Shown piece after piece: positions 9,573-38,945 of a stretch of 64,000 nt of DNA; within the stretch, counting starts at the first letter, position 1, and each line of letters opens with the position of its first letter. The position numbers and the translations under genes were made by a program. The stretch is from Escherichia phage AV111, in sequence record OR352941.1. The stretch is one strand, 5' to 3'. Below the pieces are notes generated by a model. It was not told the DNA's origin. It saw nothing but the letters and a program-made list of their open reading frames with translations, and did no database searches.

Positions 9573-10673
9573 TTACGCTGTGAAGATTTTATCCCACATC
9601 GCAACAACTGCATCTCGATTATACTTCTTCCATACTGCTTCAGCACGTTTAACTCGAGCTTCGTATGTGTCAGTGAATTCTAATACAGCTTTTGTGTAAA
9701 GCGCAACTACTTCTTTCTTAGGAGTAGAGGAATCAATTTCTACACGCACAGTATCTGGGTCGTATTCGAATGTCGCATGAGGATAATCCTTAAAAACTAA
9801 CTGGATTACAGGGACACCTTTAGAAATGGCTTCAATAGAACTATTCTCTACCGTACCTGTGTCAGGACACGTATTAATAAGTGCTTTAGCTGTTTTAAGA
9901 CGTTCCATGATTTCACTGTGTGGAGCATCAATAATAACAGGATATTTAGCTGGTGGTGCCCATTTGCTTGGACAATAACCAATACCATTTTCGCCTAGTG
10001 CTTTAATTGCTTCAAGAGCAACATCAGTGCGACGCATCTTAGTGTCATAACGTTGAGCACTAATAATCAAATCAGTTGCCGGGAGAACTTCTGGCTTTTC
10101 AGACAAACAAATAACCGGGTAGTCATCAGGTTCAAATAATGGATTTTCGCGCCAGTAGTCATAATCAATTTTGTCAGTCAGACCTGAAGTCATATAACAA
10201 TATTTGCGTTCAAATTCACGGAAGGCTTTAGTAGGAGCATAGCTCTTCCCGCCGTTCTTGTGAATCTGGATAGTCTGATCCCAAATTTGAACAATACCAC
10301 GAGACACCGGTTCAAACGGCGTAGCCATAAAATTCTTATGAACTTTAGAGAGTCCAGCATCTTTAATTGCCTGAACGGTTAGTTTAGTCGGTTCCATAGT
10401 AACAACAAAATCGTATTCATGGATGCCGGCTAGTTCAACAATCTTACGAGCCATAGTATAACTCATACCTAGACTGAATTTAGTCAGATGACCAACAGGA
10501 TGATGATTAACCTTCCAATCACCAAACGTGTCATTATCAAAGCCGATATAATCAATATCAGCACCGATGGACACAAGATATTTCAACACATTTAAATGTA
10601 CTGCTTCAAGACCACCTTGTACACGGTCAGGATTAAATGGGACTGCACGAGATGGGATAAACATAACTTTCAT
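9573..10673 (-). CDS. GT-B fold glycosyltransferase-like protein; candidate DNA (hydroxymethylcytosine) glycosyl/arabinosyl-transferase
   Basis: 366 aa; C-terminal motif TGTVENSSIEAISKGVPVI resembles the GT4/GT-B donor-binding motif; lies next to rIIA where the proposed RB69 arabinosyltransferase maps (recollection). Confidence 0.55.
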   Translation of the reverse strand: MKVMFIPSRAVPFNPDRVQGGLEAVHLNVLKYLVSIGADIDYIGFDNDTFGDWKVNHHPVGHLTKFSLGMSYTMARKIVELAGIHEYDFVVTMEPTKLTVQAIKDAGLSKVHKNFMATPFEPVSRGIVQIWDQTIQIHKNGGKSYAPTKAFREFERKYCYMTSGLTDKIDYDYWRENPLFEPDDYPVICLSEKPEVLPATDLIISAQRYDTKMRRTDVALEAIKALGENGIGYCPSKWAPPAKYPVIIDAPHSEIMERLKTAKALINTCPDTGTVENSSIEAISKGVPVIQLVFKDYPHATFEYDPDTVRVEIDSSTPKKEVVALYTKAVLEFTDTYEARVKRAEAVWKKYNRDAVVAMWDKIFTA

Positions 10674-30785: not shown

Positions 30786-31127
30786 TTAAAAGAATTTAAA
30801 TTTTTTCTTGGTTCGTTCATTAAAAGCTTGTTGTACTTGCATTGTAACACATTTTTCAACATGTGGTGCAAGTTCTGCTTTTCTGTCCTGGTCAAGAACT
30901 GCAAAGTCCATTACGATTTTACCACCAACCCAGTCTAGTTTTGTAATATAGACTATATGATGGGAACCGTCTTCAAGTGTAATCAGAATCTCTTGAATGA
31001 CATTTTCCATTGCTGAACGGATAATTTTAAGAGATTCATTAAACACTCGTTCTTTGCGAATGTCCTCCCCTTCCGAAGAAGGGGATTCATCAACGATTTC
31101 TAGATTTAAATCATCGAGATTATTCAT
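30786..31127 (-). CDS. 40: gp40-like protein
   Basis: ATG at 31127 overlaps uvsX stop (ATGAATAA); about 113 aa; synteny. Confidence 0.6.
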   Translation of the reverse strand: MNNLDDLNLEIVDESPSSEGEDIRKERVFNESLKIIRSAMENVIQEILITLEDGSHHIVYITKLDWVGGKIVMDFAVLDQDRKAELAPHVEKCVTMQVQQAFNERTKKKFKFF

Positions 31128-32292
31128 CGAAATCTTCCATTTCGTCAAGGTCGTTTTCAATATCTGCTGCAGACGGAGCATCAGAAGTTTTAACCGGAAC
31201 TTTAGTTGTTGCTTTGCAATTAATAAGGTCATTAACAGCGTCATCAACTTCTTTAATAGAAGAGATAGCACCTAGTTTATATTTAGTTTCAATTGCATCT
31301 CGGAAAGGCTTATGTTTAAACAACGGCCCCCAGAATTCTACACAATCAGTAGCTTTAGCACGCCATGATTTCTCTTCACGAATCATTTCGCCTGTTTCTT
31401 CGTCAAGGAATTCGCGAGCATACCAACCGGCTTTAGGCTTAACCACAAAACCGATTTCAGTTGCCATTTCTAGCAAGCCGCTGAATGGGTCGATACCACC
31501 ATCAAAATTAACCGTGATCGGGAAAGTAGATTTCTCTTTAACTGTACGAGATTTTTCTGCTTTCAACGTGAAGTCATAACCGGTCAATTCTGTACCTTCT
31601 TTAACCTGACGTTTAGAGATAAAAAATACCGTGTTGGCAGAATAAAGAATACCTGTACCACCACCCATAATCTCTTTAGGATATAGTCCGCCGATTTCCA
31701 TTGCTGTATGGTTGATTGCAACACATGGAATATCTTTAATAGTCAGATAAGGAGTCACAATGCGGAACAGAGATTTAAGTGCCTTAGCACGAGACATATC
31801 ACCTACAACTTTCTCGTTCAACGCATCTTCGGTTTCTTTCTTAGATGCAGTATTACCGATTGAATCGATAAAGATAATAACTTTATCACCGCGTTCAATC
31901 GCGTCAAGCTGATTAGTCATATCAACTTTAAGTTGTTCGACAGATTGAATCGGAGTATGAACTACACGGTCTAAATCAACACCCATTGAACGAAAATAAG
32001 ATTCTGAAGCACCAAATTCTGAATCATAGAACAAACAAATTGCATCTTTATATTTCTTCATATATGCTGCAACCATGGTCAGTCCAAACAACGTTTTAAA
32101 GTGTTTAGAAGGAGCAGCAAAAATAGTCAAGCCTGATTGCAATCCTGCATTCAGAGCACCACCTAGTGCAATATTCAACATCGGAATACGAGTAGGGACT
32201 TCATCACGATTATTAAACAGCTTAGACTTAGTCAAGTCTGCAGTCATTTTAGAAGTAGAAGCTTTAATCAGACGAGATTTTAAATCAGACAT
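31120..32292 (-). CDS. uvsX: UvsX recombinase (RecA-like)
   Basis: 390 aa; matches T4 UvsX length and N-terminus. Confidence 0.95.
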   Translation of the reverse strand: MSDLKSRLIKASTSKMTADLTKSKLFNNRDEVPTRIPMLNIALGGALNAGLQSGLTIFAAPSKHFKTLFGLTMVAAYMKKYKDAICLFYDSEFGASESYFRSMGVDLDRVVHTPIQSVEQLKVDMTNQLDAIERGDKVIIFIDSIGNTASKKETEDALNEKVVGDMSRAKALKSLFRIVTPYLTIKDIPCVAINHTAMEIGGLYPKEIMGGGTGILYSANTVFFISKRQVKEGTELTGYDFTLKAEKSRTVKEKSTFPITVNFDGGIDPFSGLLEMATEIGFVVKPKAGWYAREFLDEETGEMIREEKSWRAKATDCVEFWGPLFKHKPFRDAIETKYKLGAISSIKEVDDAVNDLINCKATTKVPVKTSDAPSAADIENDLDEMEDFDE

Positions 32293-32345
32293 TGTATTTT
32301 TCCATAGGCATCATTATATTTTACTCATGTTTAAAAGATAAGATG

Positions 32346-32370
32346 ATTATATACTAAGAGTTATACAGCA
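32346..32370 (-). promoter_or_regulatory. middle-type promoter upstream of uvsX (MotA-like box TGCTGTA, 12 nt, -10 TATAAT)
   Basis: read from sequence; box deviates from TGCTT by one base. Confidence 0.45.
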
Positions 32371-32390
32371 TTTAAAACTTTAAATGGCTC

Positions 32391-32939
32391 TTAACGAGCC
32401 CATTTAATGATTTCTGTAATCAAATTATTACGTTCGCTTGCATTAAATCCTATAACTTTGTTAGAACCATCATGATTAAGTAATTGATACGTTTGGATTT
32501 TGTTATGAATTGCAAACTCTTCAAAATGTGAAATGACTGTATTAAAACCGAATGAAGACAAAGTAATAAGGTCGTCTTCAAAACTTTCAGACATTTCGTT
32601 ACGTGTTAAAATAATTGTGAACACATCATGGTTTTGGCAAAGACGAACATAATCCTGTTCATAAACGTCAAGAACCGAGTCCGCATCTTGTCGAATACGT
32701 CCATAAACCCAGTTACTAATATATCCACGGTCTAACAGATAAATCTTAGTAGGGTCTAAATAATTCAACATCGTTTCGAAACAGCCAACTTCATTTCGAG
32801 ACTTAACATCGAAACGTCCATCAACTGTTCGTTTAGGGAAATCAATCTTTACATATCTTTCACTAATTTCCATTATGTCATTAATGAAAGTTGTTTTACC
32901 AGCATTATCTGGGCCATCTACTAAAATAATTTTAGCCAT
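32391..32939 (-). CDS. P-loop kinase-like protein (182 aa)
   Basis: Walker A DGPDNAGKTT at the N-terminus; sits where T4 has beta-gt. Confidence 0.55.
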   Translation of the reverse strand: MAKIILVDGPDNAGKTTFINDIMEISERYVKIDFPKRTVDGRFDVKSRNEVGCFETMLNYLDPTKIYLLDRGYISNWVYGRIRQDADSVLDVYEQDYVRLCQNHDVFTIILTRNEMSESFEDDLITLSSFGFNTVISHFEEFAIHNKIQTYQLLNHDGSNKVIGFNASERNNLITEIIKWAR

Positions 32940-32940
32940 T

Positions 32941-33840
32941 TTATTCCTCGATTACGACATCTTCATATTTAGGTATATTATACGGCGAAGAAATTAAAGC
33001 GTTAAAGTAGATGAACTCACCAAGACCTGGATGGAATACTTCTTCAGGATTTTCGAAATATTGAATCTTCGGACGTCCTTTAAGAATTTGATAGTACTCA
33101 GTTTTAGTTGGATTAAAAATTCGAATCAGCGCTTCTTCAGGATACTTATTTCTGTCGAAACTATTATTTGGATCAGTTATATAAAGCGGTTGACCTAATT
33201 GAATTGCGCATTCAACCACTTGTTCAAAACGATAGCATGGGTCACTAATTCGAAATGGATGAAAAATACCATCTAGATGAATAGGAGCCAAATCACCTAC
33301 AAGACGCTGCATGACGGAAGGACGTATAACTTTCTGCGTTACGATAATCTTATTACCATCTGCACCTGCGTTAACCAGCACTTCTTTTTGACGTTCATTC
33401 AACACAGTAGTTTGAAGTGAACGATTAACAGACAACATGTCGGTTTTTAAGAATTCATCAATATAAAAACGTGGTTTATTAGGGTCTGCAGTGATATTGA
33501 AATTGAATTCTACATCAAAAGCGCCGTCATATCCAGTGATATCTGTGATTAGAAAATCGCAATCATAATAAGCAATTAATGAATCAACTACAAATTCATT
33601 TTCAGACCAGAAATATTTACGAGTGTTATACGCGTTATCTTTATACCATAATGGAACAAACTTAAATTCTGGAAAAAGACGTTCGCATTCTTTAATATCA
33701 GATGCATTACGTGGATATGTAATCACATCACCCGGATTAGCACGGTGCAAATGAAGTTGGAAGTTGCCATCCTTAAGGATAGCATACTGTCCAGTTTCAT
33801 AAGACCGCATACTCAAGATAGGTACGCGGAAAATAGCCAT
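32941..33840 (-). CDS. hypothetical protein (299 aa)
   Basis: ORF in track; part of the cassette between uvsX and gene 43. Confidence 0.5.
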   Translation of the reverse strand: MAIFRVPILSMRSYETGQYAILKDGNFQLHLHRANPGDVITYPRNASDIKECERLFPEFKFVPLWYKDNAYNTRKYFWSENEFVVDSLIAYYDCDFLITDITGYDGAFDVEFNFNITADPNKPRFYIDEFLKTDMLSVNRSLQTTVLNERQKEVLVNAGADGNKIIVTQKVIRPSVMQRLVGDLAPIHLDGIFHPFRISDPCYRFEQVVECAIQLGQPLYITDPNNSFDRNKYPEEALIRIFNPTKTEYYQILKGRPKIQYFENPEEVFHPGLGEFIYFNALISSPYNIPKYEDVVIEE

Positions 33841-34556
33841 TAGTCAAGGAATCCTTTAACATAATCAAAATCACGTTCAAACACATGGGCACTTACCATG
33901 GTATGAGTATAATCACCAACTTCTACACCACATTCGTTAGCGATATAATGAAGTAATTTTCCTTGGAGATAAAAATCCAACTGCATAACAACAGCACAGT
34001 TCTGAGAACGCATATGACAGTGGGTATAAAGCTTACCATCACGAATATAATAAGTCACTGAGTCAGTACATGGATATTCAAGCGTTTCGTCTGAATCAAG
34101 CAAAGCCTGATCAGAACTTTCTAGAATTTGGAACACAACTCTTCGAGAGTTAGGCTTCTCTTTAAGTTCTTTTAGAAGAGCTGGTAATTGAGCCGCAATG
34201 CGAGGACCATAGAAAGTGTTGAAGTTCGCCGGCAAAACATCTGATTTTGGTTTAGAAATAAATTTAGCGACATTAGGATATGCCTTAAACGCTTCTTCTG
34301 CGTTGGTACCACCAGAAATCATAAACTTCCAGAAGTCTTCGGCATATTCATAAGAGATGCGGTTAATACGTGGGTCGGTCATTTTGAATGATGACGGAGT
34401 GTCAACAACTACTGTCATAGACCCAATTTCATTACAACGTCCAATACGAGAATCAGTTACGAATTCCGGGTTTTCTAAAATTTCACGATTGACTGCTTTA
34501 AATGCGGTTTGAAAATCTGCGGCTTTGATATATTTCATTGTGTTATGTTTTCCCAT
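33840..34556 (-). CDS. thymidylate-synthase-family pyrimidine hydroxymethylase, divergent gp42-like
   Basis: motifs NSRR, EYPCT (catalytic Cys), YYIRDGK, HMRSQN align with T4 gp42 DSRR, FMCT, YLIRDKK, MRSND but overall identity is low. Confidence 0.65.
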   Translation of the reverse strand: MGKHNTMKYIKAADFQTAFKAVNREILENPEFVTDSRIGRCNEIGSMTVVVDTPSSFKMTDPRINRISYEYAEDFWKFMISGGTNAEEAFKAYPNVAKFISKPKSDVLPANFNTFYGPRIAAQLPALLKELKEKPNSRRVVFQILESSDQALLDSDETLEYPCTDSVTYYIRDGKLYTHCHMRSQNCAVVMQLDFYLQGKLLHYIANECGVEVGDYTHTMVSAHVFERDFDYVKGFLD

Positions 34557-34597
34557 GTTTACCTCAATACAATTATTATATACTCAATTCGTAAAGC

Positions 34598-34837
34598 TTA
34601 TTTGAATTTCTTGGCAGTGTTGATATAACGTAAAGCTTCAGCATCGATACTTCCAAGAACACTATGAAGAAATGCATCAGCGTAGTATTCCAATTGAACA
34701 GATTCTTTAATCACTTTAGCCGCTTTAGTTTCAAACAGGCCCATCAGGGCCTTTTTAAGAATTTGTTCATTAGTGTTCAGTTTCATAGTCAAAATCTCTT
34801 CATTAAGTTGGTGGTTAAAAGTTTTTCTAGAAATCAT
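34598..34837 (-). CDS. hypothetical protein (79 aa)
   Basis: ORF in track. Confidence 0.4.
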   Translation of the reverse strand: MISRKTFNHQLNEEILTMKLNTNEQILKKALMGLFETKAAKVIKESVQLEYYADAFLHSVLGSIDAEALRYINTAKKFK

Positions 34838-35994
34838 TCCGGGTACCTCAAAGCGTCATCAGAGTTAGTTATATCAATAATAGATATAGAGTTTTCTGCT
34901 AACCCGTTTTTAGATAATTGACGTTTATAATATCTTTCACAATATGTACACGTCGTCCCGCAGATTTCATTAGCACAATCGAAATCTGGATGTCTGAACC
35001 ACCTTTTTTCTAAAAAGCCATCTAACAAAGAGGTTTCAATATTTACTGTATGTGAAAACTCAGTTTCGTTTTCAAGAGTGAAAATAGTCTCTAAAGGCTT
35101 CCACAGTTCTAACAAATTACCTTCAAACTTTTCAGAAGCGTATGCTTCAAGAACTTTCAAAATGTAGTCTGTGCTACCTGTACGTCCTGAAACTTTGAAT
35201 TGAGTGATACCAATATCATTATAAAGTTTCAAATCTTGAGGACGAACAAAACGAGTTCTCAACCAGTTAAATGGGTCTGTATCACGAGCTTTAATACAGT
35301 GCTGCATAGGATATCCGTTTAAGGATTTAGCATCATCAGCTGTAACATCAGTACTATGGAAAATATAGCAAGAGTCACGATAGCTACAATGTGTTGTATA
35401 CCCTTTACCAGCATTAGAACAGAACTCATTTACAAGAACTTCAAATATTATATTGTTCTTATTGCAAAACTCTGCTGCACGCTTCAGGAAAGAAACTGAA
35501 CGGTTCTTATGAATTCCACAGCAGACCTTTTTGATATTATATTGGTCATGCAAGTATTTGATTTGAGTTACAGCATCGACATGTAGAATTGTTGAAACTT
35601 CAATCTCAATGTCTTTATTGACTTCACGAACAATTTCCATAACAACAGGGTTAGCGATAGTAATACGCCATACGCCTATTGACCAAAGATACTGAACATA
35701 ATCCTGAATAGCTTTCTTCTTCCACTCAACTAGTTCTCTTTTTGAACCAGGATTTATCGTGTTGAGTGTATAGTTAAAGCAAATACCTAATTCGTTACAA
35801 CGTTTAACGTAATCTTCTAACATCTTTTTGTCAACGTCAGGAAGCCTAAAATCAGGTCTGGCTGCTACAAAAGCCATTTCTCTTGTAGAGCCGTATACTT
35901 CGTTTATCAAGCTATTAGGATAGGTTTTATTGAGCTCTACGATTTTATCAAGAAGAGCTAAATCAAAATTCGTTCCGATTTTAAAAGTATTCAT
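34834..35994 (-). CDS. Cys-cluster protein (386 aa), possible Fe-S enzyme
   Basis: C-terminal CX4CX3CX2C cluster and an EFCSNAGKGYTTHCS segment reminiscent of the peptidase U32 signature. Confidence 0.5.
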   Translation of the reverse strand: MNTFKIGTNFDLALLDKIVELNKTYPNSLINEVYGSTREMAFVAARPDFRLPDVDKKMLEDYVKRCNELGICFNYTLNTINPGSKRELVEWKKKAIQDYVQYLWSIGVWRITIANPVVMEIVREVNKDIEIEVSTILHVDAVTQIKYLHDQYNIKKVCCGIHKNRSVSFLKRAAEFCNKNNIIFEVLVNEFCSNAGKGYTTHCSYRDSCYIFHSTDVTADDAKSLNGYPMQHCIKARDTDPFNWLRTRFVRPQDLKLYNDIGITQFKVSGRTGSTDYILKVLEAYASEKFEGNLLELWKPLETIFTLENETEFSHTVNIETSLLDGFLEKRWFRHPDFDCANEICGTTCTYCERYYKRQLSKNGLAENSISIIDITNSDDALRYPE

Positions 35995-36056
35995 TTTTTT
36001 TGCATCTCGCGTTAATTGATGCGATGGTTTTTTTTTTGCAGGTCTTACTTAAATTA

Positions 36057-36458
36057 TTATAGATTCGGTTTATATGATTTAAATGTTTCGAATTCGCCTT
36101 TATTCATAAGAGCTTTGAATTCATCAGGACGCATAGCTTTGTCGTCGATAATCCAATCATATACTGGTTTATGTGTTAGCAAATTATGGTACTTCAAACC
36201 AATGTTTTCCAAGTTCTGAATAAGACTTGGGAGAATGTCAATTGCTATACGACCAGGACCTACTGACTTCATACCACGAGCAGTGTAAAGCGTTATGGTA
36301 TGCCCTGCATCATACAGGGCATTAATGGCAGACACCATTTCGACGTCTGGTTTGAAGTTCACGTAATCACGATTGTTATTCCATTCCGTGATGCAATCAT
36401 CGACATCAAAACAAAGATTAAGCATGTTTTCTACACAGTGCATTAGATTCGTTCCCAT
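36057..36458 (-). CDS. HAD-superfamily phosphatase (133 aa)
   Basis: motif I FDVDDCIT (DxDxT), motif II TARG, motif III WIIDDK. Confidence 0.65.
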   Translation of the reverse strand: MGTNLMHCVENMLNLCFDVDDCITEWNNNRDYVNFKPDVEMVSAINALYDAGHTITLYTARGMKSVGPGRIAIDILPSLIQNLENIGLKYHNLLTHKPVYDWIIDDKAMRPDEFKALMNKGEFETFKSYKPNL

Positions 36459-38128
36459 TGATGAGTGATATCGCCACCGATTGGACGATAAGAAACACCA
36501 GTTTCTTTATCAGTTAGTACCCATTTACCAGGATTTTTTGTAATCAGAGTAGCCGTTACAGGTTCTGCTACGTCATAACTAATAGAGCCGTCTTGAAGTA
36601 CACGGCCCATGTTACGTAATTGCTTAGTCAGAAGTTCCATACCTTTATAATATGCTGCTACCGCTTTAAGTGGATTATTCTTGAAATAACCACCTAATGC
36701 AATCCAGATAATTGCTACAGCCAAATGATGATACTCGTTAAACGAACTCATCTTTCCATATTTGTAAACTAATGGATTGATGTTAATAGTCACATTACAA
36801 GTTGTTTCATCAATAGTAAACTGTCCCCAGGCCGGATTAGCATTGAATTCATCATAACCTGAAACAGCATAAAGCACTTTAGCTTCATCATACAATTTTG
36901 GCCCGTAAATCTTGGTTTCGCCAAAATATCCACGAGGGTCGATAAACTTGACTTCGCCGTTATCAGTAATCATAGTATTACTGAAGTTCGGGTCACCATG
37001 AATAACAGAGTACTGTCCCTGAGAACGGTTATGATAACGAATAAGGTGTTCTAAAGCTTGTTTCAGCATTGGCTTCAGACGTCCAATCTTAGTGTAGTTC
37101 ACATGTGTGATTTTACCAAATGAATCAATCAATGGTTGAATACTTTCACAACGATCAATAACTTTCGTATAGAATTCTTTAGTGAAATCACGACGAACAG
37201 TTTCAGGACTTACAAAATAAGTGTCTGTGCTGAATTTCAGTGCATCTAAAATTGCATCAACAATTTGTGGACGAGCAAGACTTGATTTGGATTTAATATA
37301 TTCAAATGCCGGCTTACCTTTAATGCGTTCCATTTCAAAGTTATTTTCATTAACAGAAACTAACTGAGGAACTGAATCTGATTTCACTTTAAGATACCAC
37401 GAAATCTCATCTTTCTGAAGAGCTCGACCCTGTTCGGTTAATGCGAATTTAGTTACAGTTTCTTCACCAATTTCAACTGCATTAAAACTACGATTAAGTT
37501 CACGAACTTCATGAGCTTTTTCAAGTTTAGGCATATCACCTAAATCAATTAGATTCATAAGCTCTGATTTATTGAATGCGCTGCCGTAAAGGAATTCTAC
37601 GAAATCACGTCCTTTGCAGTATTCATGAATTTCCTCATCGGTAGAACCCATATAGAATTCCCAGTCTTTGAACTGATAAATTCCTACAACATTACCACCT
37701 GTTGAACCTACGTTAGTGATATTTTCACCGTCGAAATTATATCGACATTCATCACCCTTAACATAGATTGCGTTAACATTCCAAGACCATGAACCAAAAT
37801 CAGGAATAATATCACACCAGTTAACAATTACGTTATGGCCGTCTAAATCTTTGTGTAATTTAGCAAGAGCATAAGCAGAACCATACGCTTCATCAACTGT
37901 ACGAATAGTCACATTGAACCCTTCTTGCTCACAATAAGCTCGAACAGTTTCAGCAAATTTTGAATGAACTACTACAATAATTTCATCTGCGCCAAGGTCA
38001 GAATAAATTGTATACAAATTGCTCAGAATAGTGTCTTGTTTATAGTTAACAAGCACCTTAGGAATATGATGCGTTATTGGATACAAACGAGTTGCCAGTC
38101 CAGCACCAAGAATAACAGCTTTTTTCAT
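36443..38128 (-). CDS. bifunctional sugar-1-phosphate nucleotidyltransferase / kinase (561 aa)
   Basis: N-terminus MKKAVILGAGLATRLYPIT (GxGTRLxPxT); C-terminal HGDPNFSN (HxDxxxxN) kinase motif. Confidence 0.7.
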   Translation of the reverse strand: MKKAVILGAGLATRLYPITHHIPKVLVNYKQDTILSNLYTIYSDLGADEIIVVVHSKFAETVRAYCEQEGFNVTIRTVDEAYGSAYALAKLHKDLDGHNVIVNWCDIIPDFGSWSWNVNAIYVKGDECRYNFDGENITNVGSTGGNVVGIYQFKDWEFYMGSTDEEIHEYCKGRDFVEFLYGSAFNKSELMNLIDLGDMPKLEKAHEVRELNRSFNAVEIGEETVTKFALTEQGRALQKDEISWYLKVKSDSVPQLVSVNENNFEMERIKGKPAFEYIKSKSSLARPQIVDAILDALKFSTDTYFVSPETVRRDFTKEFYTKVIDRCESIQPLIDSFGKITHVNYTKIGRLKPMLKQALEHLIRYHNRSQGQYSVIHGDPNFSNTMITDNGEVKFIDPRGYFGETKIYGPKLYDEAKVLYAVSGYDEFNANPAWGQFTIDETTCNVTININPLVYKYGKMSSFNEYHHLAVAIIWIALGGYFKNNPLKAVAAYYKGMELLTKQLRNMGRVLQDGSISYDVAEPVTATLITKNPGKWVLTDKETGVSYRPIGGDITHQWERI

Positions 38129-38156
38129 GTTGAAGTCCTCATTGGTAAGTAGGAGT

Positions 38157-38181
38157 ATTGTACACTATTCTAGTTAAAGCA
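38157..38181 (-). promoter_or_regulatory. MotA-type middle promoter for the nucleotidyltransferase/kinase gene (TGCTTTA, 12 nt, -10 TACAAT)
   Basis: read from sequence. Confidence 0.5.
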
Positions 38182-38313
38182 TTCATACTTTGCTTGTAGT
38201 CCAATCATAATCCATCCAATTACAAGTGTTGGAATCATTACCGGAGCCGTTAAGCTCCAGTAGATAGTCATGACAAGCATCAATAGTAAAAGTCCTATTG
38301 TTATTGCTTTCAT
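38170..38313 (-). CDS. small hydrophobic protein (47 aa)
   Basis: ATG overlaps SIS gene stop (ATGA); below ORF-track cutoff. Confidence 0.35.
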   Translation of the reverse strand: MKAITIGLLLLMLVMTIYWSLTAPVMIPTLVIGWIMIGLQAKYECFN

Positions 38314-38945
38314 TGTTCGCCTCGTAACATGGCACCTAGTGCACCGCCTGGATGGAACTTAAGGAAATCATTAGAGGTAAATCCACGTTCAGACGAAAGG
38401 TTGATAGCAAACGTATCGATAAGCGCTAACAACAATGTAGTGGACATTGTCGGAGCTAAAGAGTTCTCGTCAACTTCTACCGCGATACCGGTACAGAACG
38501 TATAATCAAAAAGAGCTTCGTATTCTTGTGGAATGTCAGGGTTACAATGTAACAGAATCTGTTTAACCTGAGGACGAATCATACGAAGATGTTTAGCAAC
38601 ACCTATCATTTCTTCAGTCTTACCAGAACGACTGATGTGAACTAATACATCATTAGGTGCAATAAATCCTGCGTCACCATGAGAATAATGCCCAGTGTTC
38701 AAGTACATACTCGGGATACCGAGTGAAGCAAATGTCTCAGAAGCTTTAGTTGCGATATTAGCATTCTTACCAACACCTGTAATAATTACCCGGCTTTCAT
38801 AATTGCTAAGTCCGGGGCGTCGAAGAGTTTCTAGAATAGCATTATAACGAGCAGGGTTTTGACTAATTACTTTGGCCATAGCGGCCAAAGAAGAAGCTTG
38901 TTTTATGATTGCGTCAATAGCGATAGTAATAGGAGTAGTTTTCAT
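38310..38945 (-). CDS. SIS-domain sugar-phosphate isomerase, KdsD/GutQ-like (arabinose-5-phosphate isomerase-like)
   Basis: ITGVGKN, HISRSGKTEE, APTMSTT, HPGGALG motifs align with the KdsD SIS domain as recalled. Confidence 0.75.
   Translation of the reverse strand: MKTTPITIAIDAIIKQASSLAAMAKVISQNPARYNAILETLRRPGLSNYESRVIITGVGKNANIATKASETFASLGIPSMYLNTGHYSHGDAGFIAPNDVLVHISRSGKTEEMIGVAKHLRMIRPQVKQILLHCNPDIPQEYEALFDYTFCTGIAVEVDENSLAPTMSTTLLLALIDTFAINLSSERGFTSNDFLKFHPGGALGAMLRGEQ

Follow-up and report, generated by a model that had tools for sequence, protein, structure and literature searches.

Two adjacent genes of Escherichia phage AV111, encoding proteins of 299 and 182 amino acids, are probably the second and third genes of a three-gene core in a pathway that replaces cytosine by arabinosyl-5-hydroxycytosine. 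Somewhat more likely than not, the kinase would act first and the DNA would be glycosylated later, as in T4. The genes lie in a window of 64,000 nucleotides (OR352941.1), which is the whole stretch of DNA that was analyzed. Both had been listed in 2026 among the genes of the arabinosyl-5-hydroxycytosine pathway, itself published in 2025–2026, and they do not constitute a new system. What is new here is the conserved and closely packed order of the triad, the tracking of the kinase with the N169 signature of the synthase, and the existence of at least nine clusters of transferase/kinase fusions.

The DNA of RB69 and of the Acinetobacter phage DLP3 contains mono- and poly-arabinosylated 5-hydroxycytosine, and not arabinosyl-hydroxymethylcytosine (Lee et al., NAR 2026, PMC13326640). 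In both phages the arabinosylated forms fully replace cytidine; the bridging oxygen is kept from 5-hydroxycytosine (5hoC), and the final DNA carries no phosphate on base or sugar (PMC13326640). Arabinosyl-5-hydroxy-dC has been shown in the virion DNA of RB69, NP and HY126-type phages (PMC13326640, PMC13390438). RB69 gp48, a thymidylate synthase (TS) homologue, makes 5-hydroxy-dCMP (5hodCMP) using O2 and flavin, the T4-gp1-type dNMP kinase gp159 phosphorylates 5hodCMP, and 5hodC enters DNA upon expression of the synthase and the gp1-type kinase (PMC13326640). It was proposed that the first arabinose is added by gp46:47 and the second by gp3, with ORF045c listed as 'nucleotide kinase' and ORF046c:047c as 'arabinosyltransferase 1' (PMC13326640). 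In DLP3 a third arabinose is added on DNA. When the DLP3 transferases were purified and tried individually in vitro, 5hoC-DNA was not arabinosylated (that paper does not display the data), and its authors cannot tell whether a mononucleotide or DNA receives the first sugar (PMC13326640). The sugar donor is made by an arabinose-5-P isomerase, AfhE (kinase and pyrophosphorylase) and AfhF (phosphatase), according to He et al. 2026 as cited in PMC13326640.

The locus and its neighbors

On the minus strand, the 182-aa ORF occupies positions 32391–32939 and the 299-aa ORF positions 32941–33840, confirming the two ORFs described in the earlier note. Upstream lies a TS homologue of 238 amino acids (33840–34556, minus strand), and its stop codon overlaps the start codon of the 299-aa gene in the sequence TAATG. 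A single base separates the stop of the 299-aa gene from the ATG of the 182-aa gene (TAAaATG). Downstream of the 182-aa gene we find uvsX (31120–32292), with gp41 beyond it. The order here is 42-homologue, 299-aa gene, 182-aa gene, uvsX. In T4 it is 42, b-gt, segA, uvsX, so that the 299-aa gene, coming right after the gene-42 homologue, stands where T4 has beta-gt. The location upstream of uvsX proposed earlier is therefore correct.

The region 31000–38200 has 98.5% DNA identity to many Mosigvirus (RB69-like) genomes, such as APCEc01 and JK45, and on sequence the window is assigned to Mosigvirus, of the RB69/HY126-like kind. The 182-aa kinase has 98% amino-acid identity to RB69 ORF045c, and the 299-aa protein 98% identity to RB69 ORF047c and ORF046c taken together; the same genes are present in HY126, Bas46/47 and NP. 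The window also shares the neighbors and their order with RB69, from ORF045c through ORF055c and gene 43. It differs in that the deposited RB69 sequence has one extra T that splits the transferase into ORF046c and ORF047c, whereas the window carries one intact ORF.

Both ORFs are real genes, and not chance ORFs, because homologues are widespread and the AlphaFold2 models are confident. In tblastn searches the 299-aa transferase has homologues in 348 phage records and the 182-aa kinase in 343. Among 1.84 billion representatives, 164 clusters (50% identity) belong to the 299-aa family at E <= 1e-10, and a profile search of these representatives identified 230 transferase family members.

The 238-aa TS homologue differs little from the crystallized HY126 enzyme (PDB 9iqc/9ir2/9iqu; E 8e-161). 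The sequence of the window protein reads MRSQN where T4 gp42 has MRSND, placing asparagine at the position of residue 169 of E. coli ThyA (the D169N signature). From the PDB match and this signature it is predicted to be the flavin-dependent dCMP 5-hydroxylase, or 5hodCMP synthase, the activity having been shown for RB69 gp48 (PMC13326640). The route through hmdCMP that had been considered in the earlier note is not upheld, given N169 in the homologue and the formation of 5-hydroxy-dCMP by the RB69 enzyme (PMC13326640).

The genes for UDP-arabinofuranose supply (isomerase, kinase/nucleotidyltransferase and HAD phosphatase) are all present, on the minus strand and in RB69 gene order. The first of these is a homologue of the arabinose-5-phosphate isomerase RB69 ORF055c (38310–38945), matching NCBIfam KpsF/GutQ (E 9e-32) and KdsD (E 4e-30). 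The second is a bifunctional nucleotidyltransferase and kinase of 561 amino acids (36443–38128), the homologue of AfhE and RB69 gp52:53, which matches Pfam NTP_transferase (E 8.5e-10) and, weakly, kinase families; its function in UDP-arabinofuranose synthesis is taken from PMC13326640. The third is an HAD-type phosphatase (36057–36458), the AfhF/RB69 gp51 homologue, identified by PHROG 1238 (E 4.5e-43) and by its position as RB69 ORF051c, with a function in sugar-donor synthesis that comes from PMC13326640 citing He et al. 2026. The afh gene names are absent from the HY126 GenBank record. Between the phosphatase and synthase genes lies a peptidase-U32-family protein of 386 amino acids (RB69 ORF050c; 34834–35994, minus strand; Pfam PF01136, E 7e-11), for which a sequence search of the PDB gave no match. 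The U32-family gene is kept in the cluster in Thanatos, and is also found in locus L011 (48% identity). A second glycosyltransferase of 366 amino acids, the RB69 gp3 homologue, is encoded elsewhere on the minus strand (9573–10673) and matches PDB 9iqz/9ir0, 'phage HY126 glycosyltransferase' (E 1e-247). Taken together, the N169 signature, the supply genes and the 98% orthology to RB69 place both ORFs, by sequence, in the arabinosyl-5-hydroxycytosine DNA-modification cluster (RB69 gp45-55 / HY126 afh).

A thymidylate kinase-like protein

The 182-aa protein, the orthologue of RB69 ORF045c and HY126 XAN60473, has the N-terminus MAKIILVDGPDNAGKTTF. Residues 9–16 (GPDNAGKT) fit the Walker A consensus GxxxxGK[ST], in agreement with the earlier assignment of this motif to the start of the protein. 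The AlphaFold2 model (pLDDT 87.6) has the Tmk fold, with a P-loop, a P-loop acidic residue and a dNMP-phosphate-binding Arg in a DR(Y/H) motif, and the nearest folds are true thymidylate kinases. PF02223 gave no match to the window kinase at E <= 0.1, and searches of Pfam and NCBIfam gave sub-threshold P-loop/Tmk matches only; TIGR00041 scored 16.7 bits against a cutoff of 83, far under the level of a dTMP-kinase equivalog. PF02223 is nonetheless the Pfam family touched by most members of the kinase family (12 of 18), all matches being sub-threshold with a best E of 3e-5. When the family profile was compared with the PDB, weak matches to the vaccinia, yeast, human and M. tuberculosis Tmk were found, spanning the P-loop and an FPK(R) motif that is aligned with vaccinia FPQR. 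The top PDB matches were the P-loops of RecA, and these were dismissed as motif-only matches of 27 residues.

Residues G9, D11, G14, K15, F34-P35-K36 and G41 are invariant in the 18 members of the family, which extend down to 28% identity, as are D70-R71, S75, N76, V78, Y79, R113, F120, D122-D123, I125, F132 and N133. In Tmk structures the P-loop Asp, the FPxR Arg and the DR Arg touch the 3'-OH and 5'-phosphate of the dNMP. Conservation of the P-loop Asp, FPK(R) and DR motifs therefore fits with a deoxynucleoside-monophosphate substrate. From model and motifs, we infer for the 182-aa protein the role of a dNMP kinase, with a 5-substituted dCMP as its substrate. It would in this be like the T4 gp1 deoxynucleoside monophosphate kinase (RB69 gp159), a phage enzyme that likewise phosphorylates dNMPs and supplies modified dCMP for DNA synthesis. 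The earlier note had proposed a kinase for a modified nucleotide or a sugar. The dNMP motifs and the Tmk fold point to the nucleotide; the sugar is not supported, the pentose kinase of the cluster being the AfhE homologue at 36443–38128 (PMC13326640 citing He et al. 2026).

The phage kinase differs from thymidylate kinases of the eukaryote and poxvirus type (PF02223) in more than its scores beneath the Pfam and NCBIfam thresholds. The lid (residues ~113–128) appears shortened, with a single invariant Arg (R113) after strand 4, in a segment that includes a low-confidence part of the model (block pLDDT 60). There is a family-specific FxDDxI motif, and the phage kinase invariably has a glycosyltransferase as neighbor or fusion partner.

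A putative sequence-orphan GT-B glycosyltransferase

The 299-aa protein is the orthologue of HY126 XAN60474 and Thanatos TH1_063 as well as of the divided RB69 gene, and corresponds to 'arabinosyltransferase 1'. Pfam, NCBIfam and PDB sequence searches with it gave no match. None of the glycosyltransferase models of Pfam matched any of 60 family members at E <= 1, and a profile of 60 sequences found no match among PDB sequences. The AlphaFold2 model (pLDDT 95.3) is GT-B, with two Rossmann-like domains and a cleft between them. This is a sequence-orphan GT-B family. There is neither sequence nor close structural homology to T4 beta-gt (GT63), of which the 299-aa protein is a predicted functional analogue.

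In structure the closest matches are enzymes of family GT4, whose acceptors are small and either phosphorylated or acidic. Compared with retaining GT-B enzymes of the GT4 type (sucrose-phosphate synthase 6kih, BshA, MshA/PimA), the phage transferase has no detectable sequence relationship, and an invariant HPG...E segment stands in place of EX7E. The EX7E motif is absent, and the corresponding segment is VFHPGLxEF, in which H270-P271-G272 are invariant. The invariant motifs of the family are SMRSYETGxYxIxKDGN, PFRxSD, TDPN and HPG. Some relatives are of 345–380 amino acids, with a C-terminal extension that is missing in the 299-aa forms. Published tests of the 299-aa orthologues have been negative or have used unsuitable acceptors (PMC13326640, PMC12838424).

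A conserved triad and natural fusions

The second transferase is found in only 211 phage records, comprising Escherichia/Shigella Mosigvirus and Acinetobacter phages, whose records each match in two places. The 299-aa type is therefore, by sequence, the universal transferase of these clusters, which fits a role in adding the first sugar. Thanatos is mono-arabinosylated, and its TH1_063 (48% identical to the 299-aa protein) is its single ara-GT (PMC13326640).

We examined eight loci in which the genes are separate: the window, Thanatos (a Shewanella phage), RL38J1 (a Rhizobium phage) and the metagenomic loci L001, L003, L006, L007 and L008. These span Straboviridae, Pootjesviridae and uncultured phages. 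In all eight the order is TS homologue, transferase, kinase on one strand. The Thanatos triad is TH1_062/063/064 and that of RL38J1 is 216/215/214, where the transferase was recognized by hhalign at 99.3% and the kinase, against the fused-domain profile A4, at 96.4%. The RL38J1 synthase makes 5hoC (PMC13326640). Junctions abut or overlap in most of the loci. Small ORFs separate the TS homologue from the transferase in L001 and L006, and in L007 a NUMOD3 homing endonuclease lies between transferase and kinase.

Asparagine is found at ThyA position 169 in seven of seven kinase-bearing loci aligned, an alignment made without RL38J1. Serratia phage PS2 has D169 (the hydroxymethyl type), a distant transferase homologue adjoining beta-gt-type genes, and no kinase. 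Thus, as judged from sequence, the kinase tracks the 5-hydroxy (N169) signature of the synthase.

Transferase and kinase are also found as single polypeptides, in at least nine protein clusters. In eight the transferase precedes the kinase (P0334, P0345, P0347, P0355, P0362, P0375, P0380 and P0381), and in one the kinase comes first (P0353). The fusions recur in many independent assemblies, and one lies on a 281-kb human-gut contig, where its neighbors encode an isomerase, an AfhE-like protein and a U32 protein. With a plain HMM of the window kinase the fused kinase domains did not reach significance, and profile–profile comparison was therefore required; this showed their homology with the kinase of the window (hhalign 95.2%, E 2.5e-8, 137 columns). 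Six of the nine fused kinase domains touch PF02223, at best with 26.7 bits against a cutoff of 27. Fusions of an HAD phosphatase with the transferase are likewise found among family members.

The order of the reactions

In the mechanism that we propose, the synthase would hydroxylate dCMP at C5, a reaction demonstrated with its orthologues from RB69 and HY126. The 182-aa enzyme would use ATP to convert the modified dCMP to the diphosphate, as its fold and motifs suggest, and this would pass by way of the host NDP kinase and the phage polymerase into DNA. With UDP-arabinofuranose supplied by the neighboring AfhE, AfhF and isomerase genes, the 299-aa enzyme would transfer the first alpha-D-arabinofuranose from UDP-arabinofuranose to O5 of 5-hydroxycytosine, a role suggested by its fold, its universality and its synteny with mono-arabinosylated Thanatos. 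The 366-aa transferase (9573–10673) would then lengthen the sugar chain on DNA. The T4-like order, with the kinase first and the sugar placed on DNA after replication, is by analogy somewhat more likely than the reverse, at roughly an even chance, and is the least certain step. It is favored because of the T4 precedent and because 5hodC is incorporated into DNA.

Some observations do not sit well with this mechanism. The RB69 gp1-type kinase already takes 5hodCMP, so that a second 5hodCMP kinase looks redundant. The DLP3 transferase orthologue was inactive on 5hoC-DNA in vitro (PMC13326640), TH1_063 has been reported to form UDP-xylose (PMC12838424), and the window kinase misses the Pfam and NCBIfam thymidylate-kinase thresholds.

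Alternatively, the sugar may be added before replication, which we regard as possible but doubtful. The 299-aa transferase would then arabinosylate 5hodCMP, or the corresponding di- or triphosphate, as a free nucleotide, the Tmk-like kinase would be dedicated to arabinosyl-5-oxy-dCMP, too bulky for gp1-type and host kinases to handle, and the polymerase would incorporate a glycosylated dCTP analogue. Only the second and third sugars would be put on DNA. The order of the synthase, transferase and kinase genes would be that of the reactions, with tight junctions among the eight separate-gene loci. Fusion of transferase and kinase in both orders in at least nine clusters points the same way, but the HAD::transferase fusions mean that fusion need not join consecutive steps, and the argument therefore weighs less. 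A dedicated kinase is consistent with the coexistence of a gp1-type kinase accepting 5hodCMP in RB69, and a gene annotated as gp1-type lies near the RL38J1 triad. The inactivity of the DLP3 orthologue on 5hoC-DNA, in a study that left the choice between mononucleotide and DNA acceptor undecided (PMC13326640), could be understood in the same terms, although the negative result in vitro may reflect inactive protein.

The composition of the DNA bears on this too. Arabinosylated forms replace cytidine completely in RB69 and DLP3 (PMC13326640), the modified cytidines of phage NP are mono- and di-arabinosylated (1:4) with bare 5hoC unmentioned, and the AfhE homologue is essential in Thanatos; all are in accord with glycosylation of the nucleotide. 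The small phosphorylated or acidic acceptors of the closest GT4 structures agree with this. Proteins of the transferase family have a median pI of 5.1 and a net charge of about -11; this acidity is weak evidence, net charge being a poor discriminator of DNA from nucleotide acceptors because the PS2 beta-gt is also acidic (pI 5.85). Against this reading, the characterized phage DNA glycosylations, by the T-even glucosyltransferases and when the third arabinose is added in DLP3, to our knowledge all act on DNA. Moreover, 5hoC-DNA is a plausible intermediate, since expression of the synthase and gp1-type kinase puts 5hodC into DNA.

Other functions for the two proteins

It is improbable that the 182-aa protein is an ordinary dTMP kinase, raising the supply of dTTP with no direct part in cytosine modification. 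Such an enzyme may make up for a gp1-type kinase whose preference has shifted to 5hodCMP. The nearest folds are true thymidylate kinases, and the label 'thymidylate kinase' appears in many GenBank records and in PHROG 761. Yet the 182-aa type is found only beside the transferase of N169-type clusters, being absent from the T4 position and from PS2, at least nine clusters have it fused to the transferase, and its TIGR00041 score is far below the cutoff. Host Tmk and gp1 already serve dTMP in T4 biology.

Following the precedent of the 5-hydroxymethyluracil DNA kinases in phages that hypermodify thymidine, a P-loop kinase so tightly linked to a transferase might instead phosphorylate a pentose, or the 5-hydroxyl or sugar on DNA. 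We consider this very unlikely and reject both roles. The dNMP-binding features are conserved (the P-loop Asp, FPK(R) aligned with vaccinia FPQR, and DR...S...Y), and the pentose kinase step is assigned to AfhE by He et al. 2026 as cited in PMC13326640. Phosphate activation of O5 would be chemically pointless, because there is no base or sugar phosphate in the final DNA and the oxygen of 5hoC is retained as the bridge.

That the 299-aa protein is a UDP-pentose pyrophosphorylase making the sugar donor, as the UDP-xylose peak obtained with TH1_063 from UTP and xylose-1-P in vitro might suggest (PMC12838424), is scarcely credible and is rejected on its fold, which is GT-B and not that of a nucleotidyltransferase; a nucleotidyltransferase domain is already provided in the cluster by the AfhE homologue, the Thanatos study offered no 5-hydroxylated acceptor (PMC12838424), and Thanatos, with TH1_063 as its single ara-GT (PMC13326640), would be left mono-arabinosylated without any transferase. 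The earlier note had named homology to unrelated T4 accessory proteins as evidence against its reading of the two genes; we looked for this and none turned up.

Significance

RB69-type phages are common in therapeutic phage collections. The modification is reported to shield them from restriction enzymes, a DNA glycosylase and CRISPR-Cas (PMC13326640, PMC13216743). The points of interest are why a second, Tmk-like kinase is invariably tied to the transferase, and which acceptor the first arabinosyltransferase uses. The three-gene core and its natural fusions sharpen the question of whether the sugar is placed on the nucleotide or on DNA. They are also a reason to assay the two proteins in combination, and this association may account for the lack of activity of the transferase by itself in vitro.

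We know of no earlier phage DNA glycosylation shown to be installed at the level of the nucleotide pool. If the sugar is indeed added before replication, this would be the first such case, with DNA built from a sugar-bearing dCTP.

Associations of the transferase and the synthase

In uncultured phages the transferase family occurs fused to a second activity, with a KdsC-like HAD phosphatase domain lying N-terminal to the transferase-family domain within one polypeptide (P0259, P0269, P0272, P0277, P0287, P0291, P0317 and P0341). Through these fusions the transferase also gains a physical link to the branch that supplies the sugar donor.

Distant relatives in four metagenomic loci carry a Flavodoxin_2 (PF02525) gene. 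It lies directly upstream of the 5hodCMP-synthase homologue in L003 (6739-7293) and L008 (2729-3259), upstream with one ORF between in L007 (1182-1706), and is also present in L001 (605-1123). The encoded protein is a candidate flavin reductase serving the flavin-dependent hydroxylase, the 5hodCMP synthase. No Flavodoxin_2 gene adjoins the 5hodCMP synthase in the window.

A peptidase-U32-family protein is encoded at 34834-35994 (-) in the window, and its RB69 counterpart, ORF050c, is labeled a 'sugar or heterocycle reductase' in PMC13326640. In Thanatos (L005 6927-8063) the gene is kept with the cluster, as it is on a phage contig of 281 kb from the human gut (L011 11642-12742; 48% identity), where no thymidylate-synthase homologue lies within 15.6 kb. 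The protein is rich in conserved cysteines, with a CX4CX3CX2C at the C-terminus among them, and its match to UbiU is weak. Among the members of the U32 family are hydroxylases that work independently of O2, one being RlhA, which generates 5-hydroxycytidine in rRNA, and for this reason the phage protein might provide an anaerobic path to 5-hydroxycytosine.

Gene boundaries and homing endonuclease genes

The deposited RB69 sequence AY303349 reads GTAGTGTGA at about 6545 of the RB69 locus, where the window has GTAG-GTGA at about 33295. The extra T in the deposited sequence splits the RB69 gene into ORF047c and ORF046c. PMC13326640 gives 'sequencing error' for RB69 at this position, and the comparison of the window with RB69 confirms that explanation. 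The gp40 homologue, mechanically called as a 161-aa ORF with a GTG start (30786-31271 (-)), overlaps the end of uvsX; because the RB69 gene is annotated at 345 nt, the real start in the window is probably an internal ATG.

In unrelated phages, homing endonuclease genes lie within or adjoining the module. In metagenomic locus L007 (4097-5011) a NUMOD3 gene separates the transferase from the kinase, in T4 (L009 3571-4236) segA lies between b-gt and uvsX, and in RL38J1 (L015 16307-17122) a homing endonuclease gene adjoins the thymidylate-synthase homologue.

A distant homologue in Serratia phage PS2

Serratia phage PS2 encodes a distant homologue of the transferase (24% identity; L010 5001-5927) without the kinase. 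Its neighbors are beta-gt and a beta-glucosyl-HMC alpha-glucosyltransferase, and it follows a gene 42 of the hydroxymethyl type. The transferase family therefore extends beyond the 5-hydroxycytosine phages.
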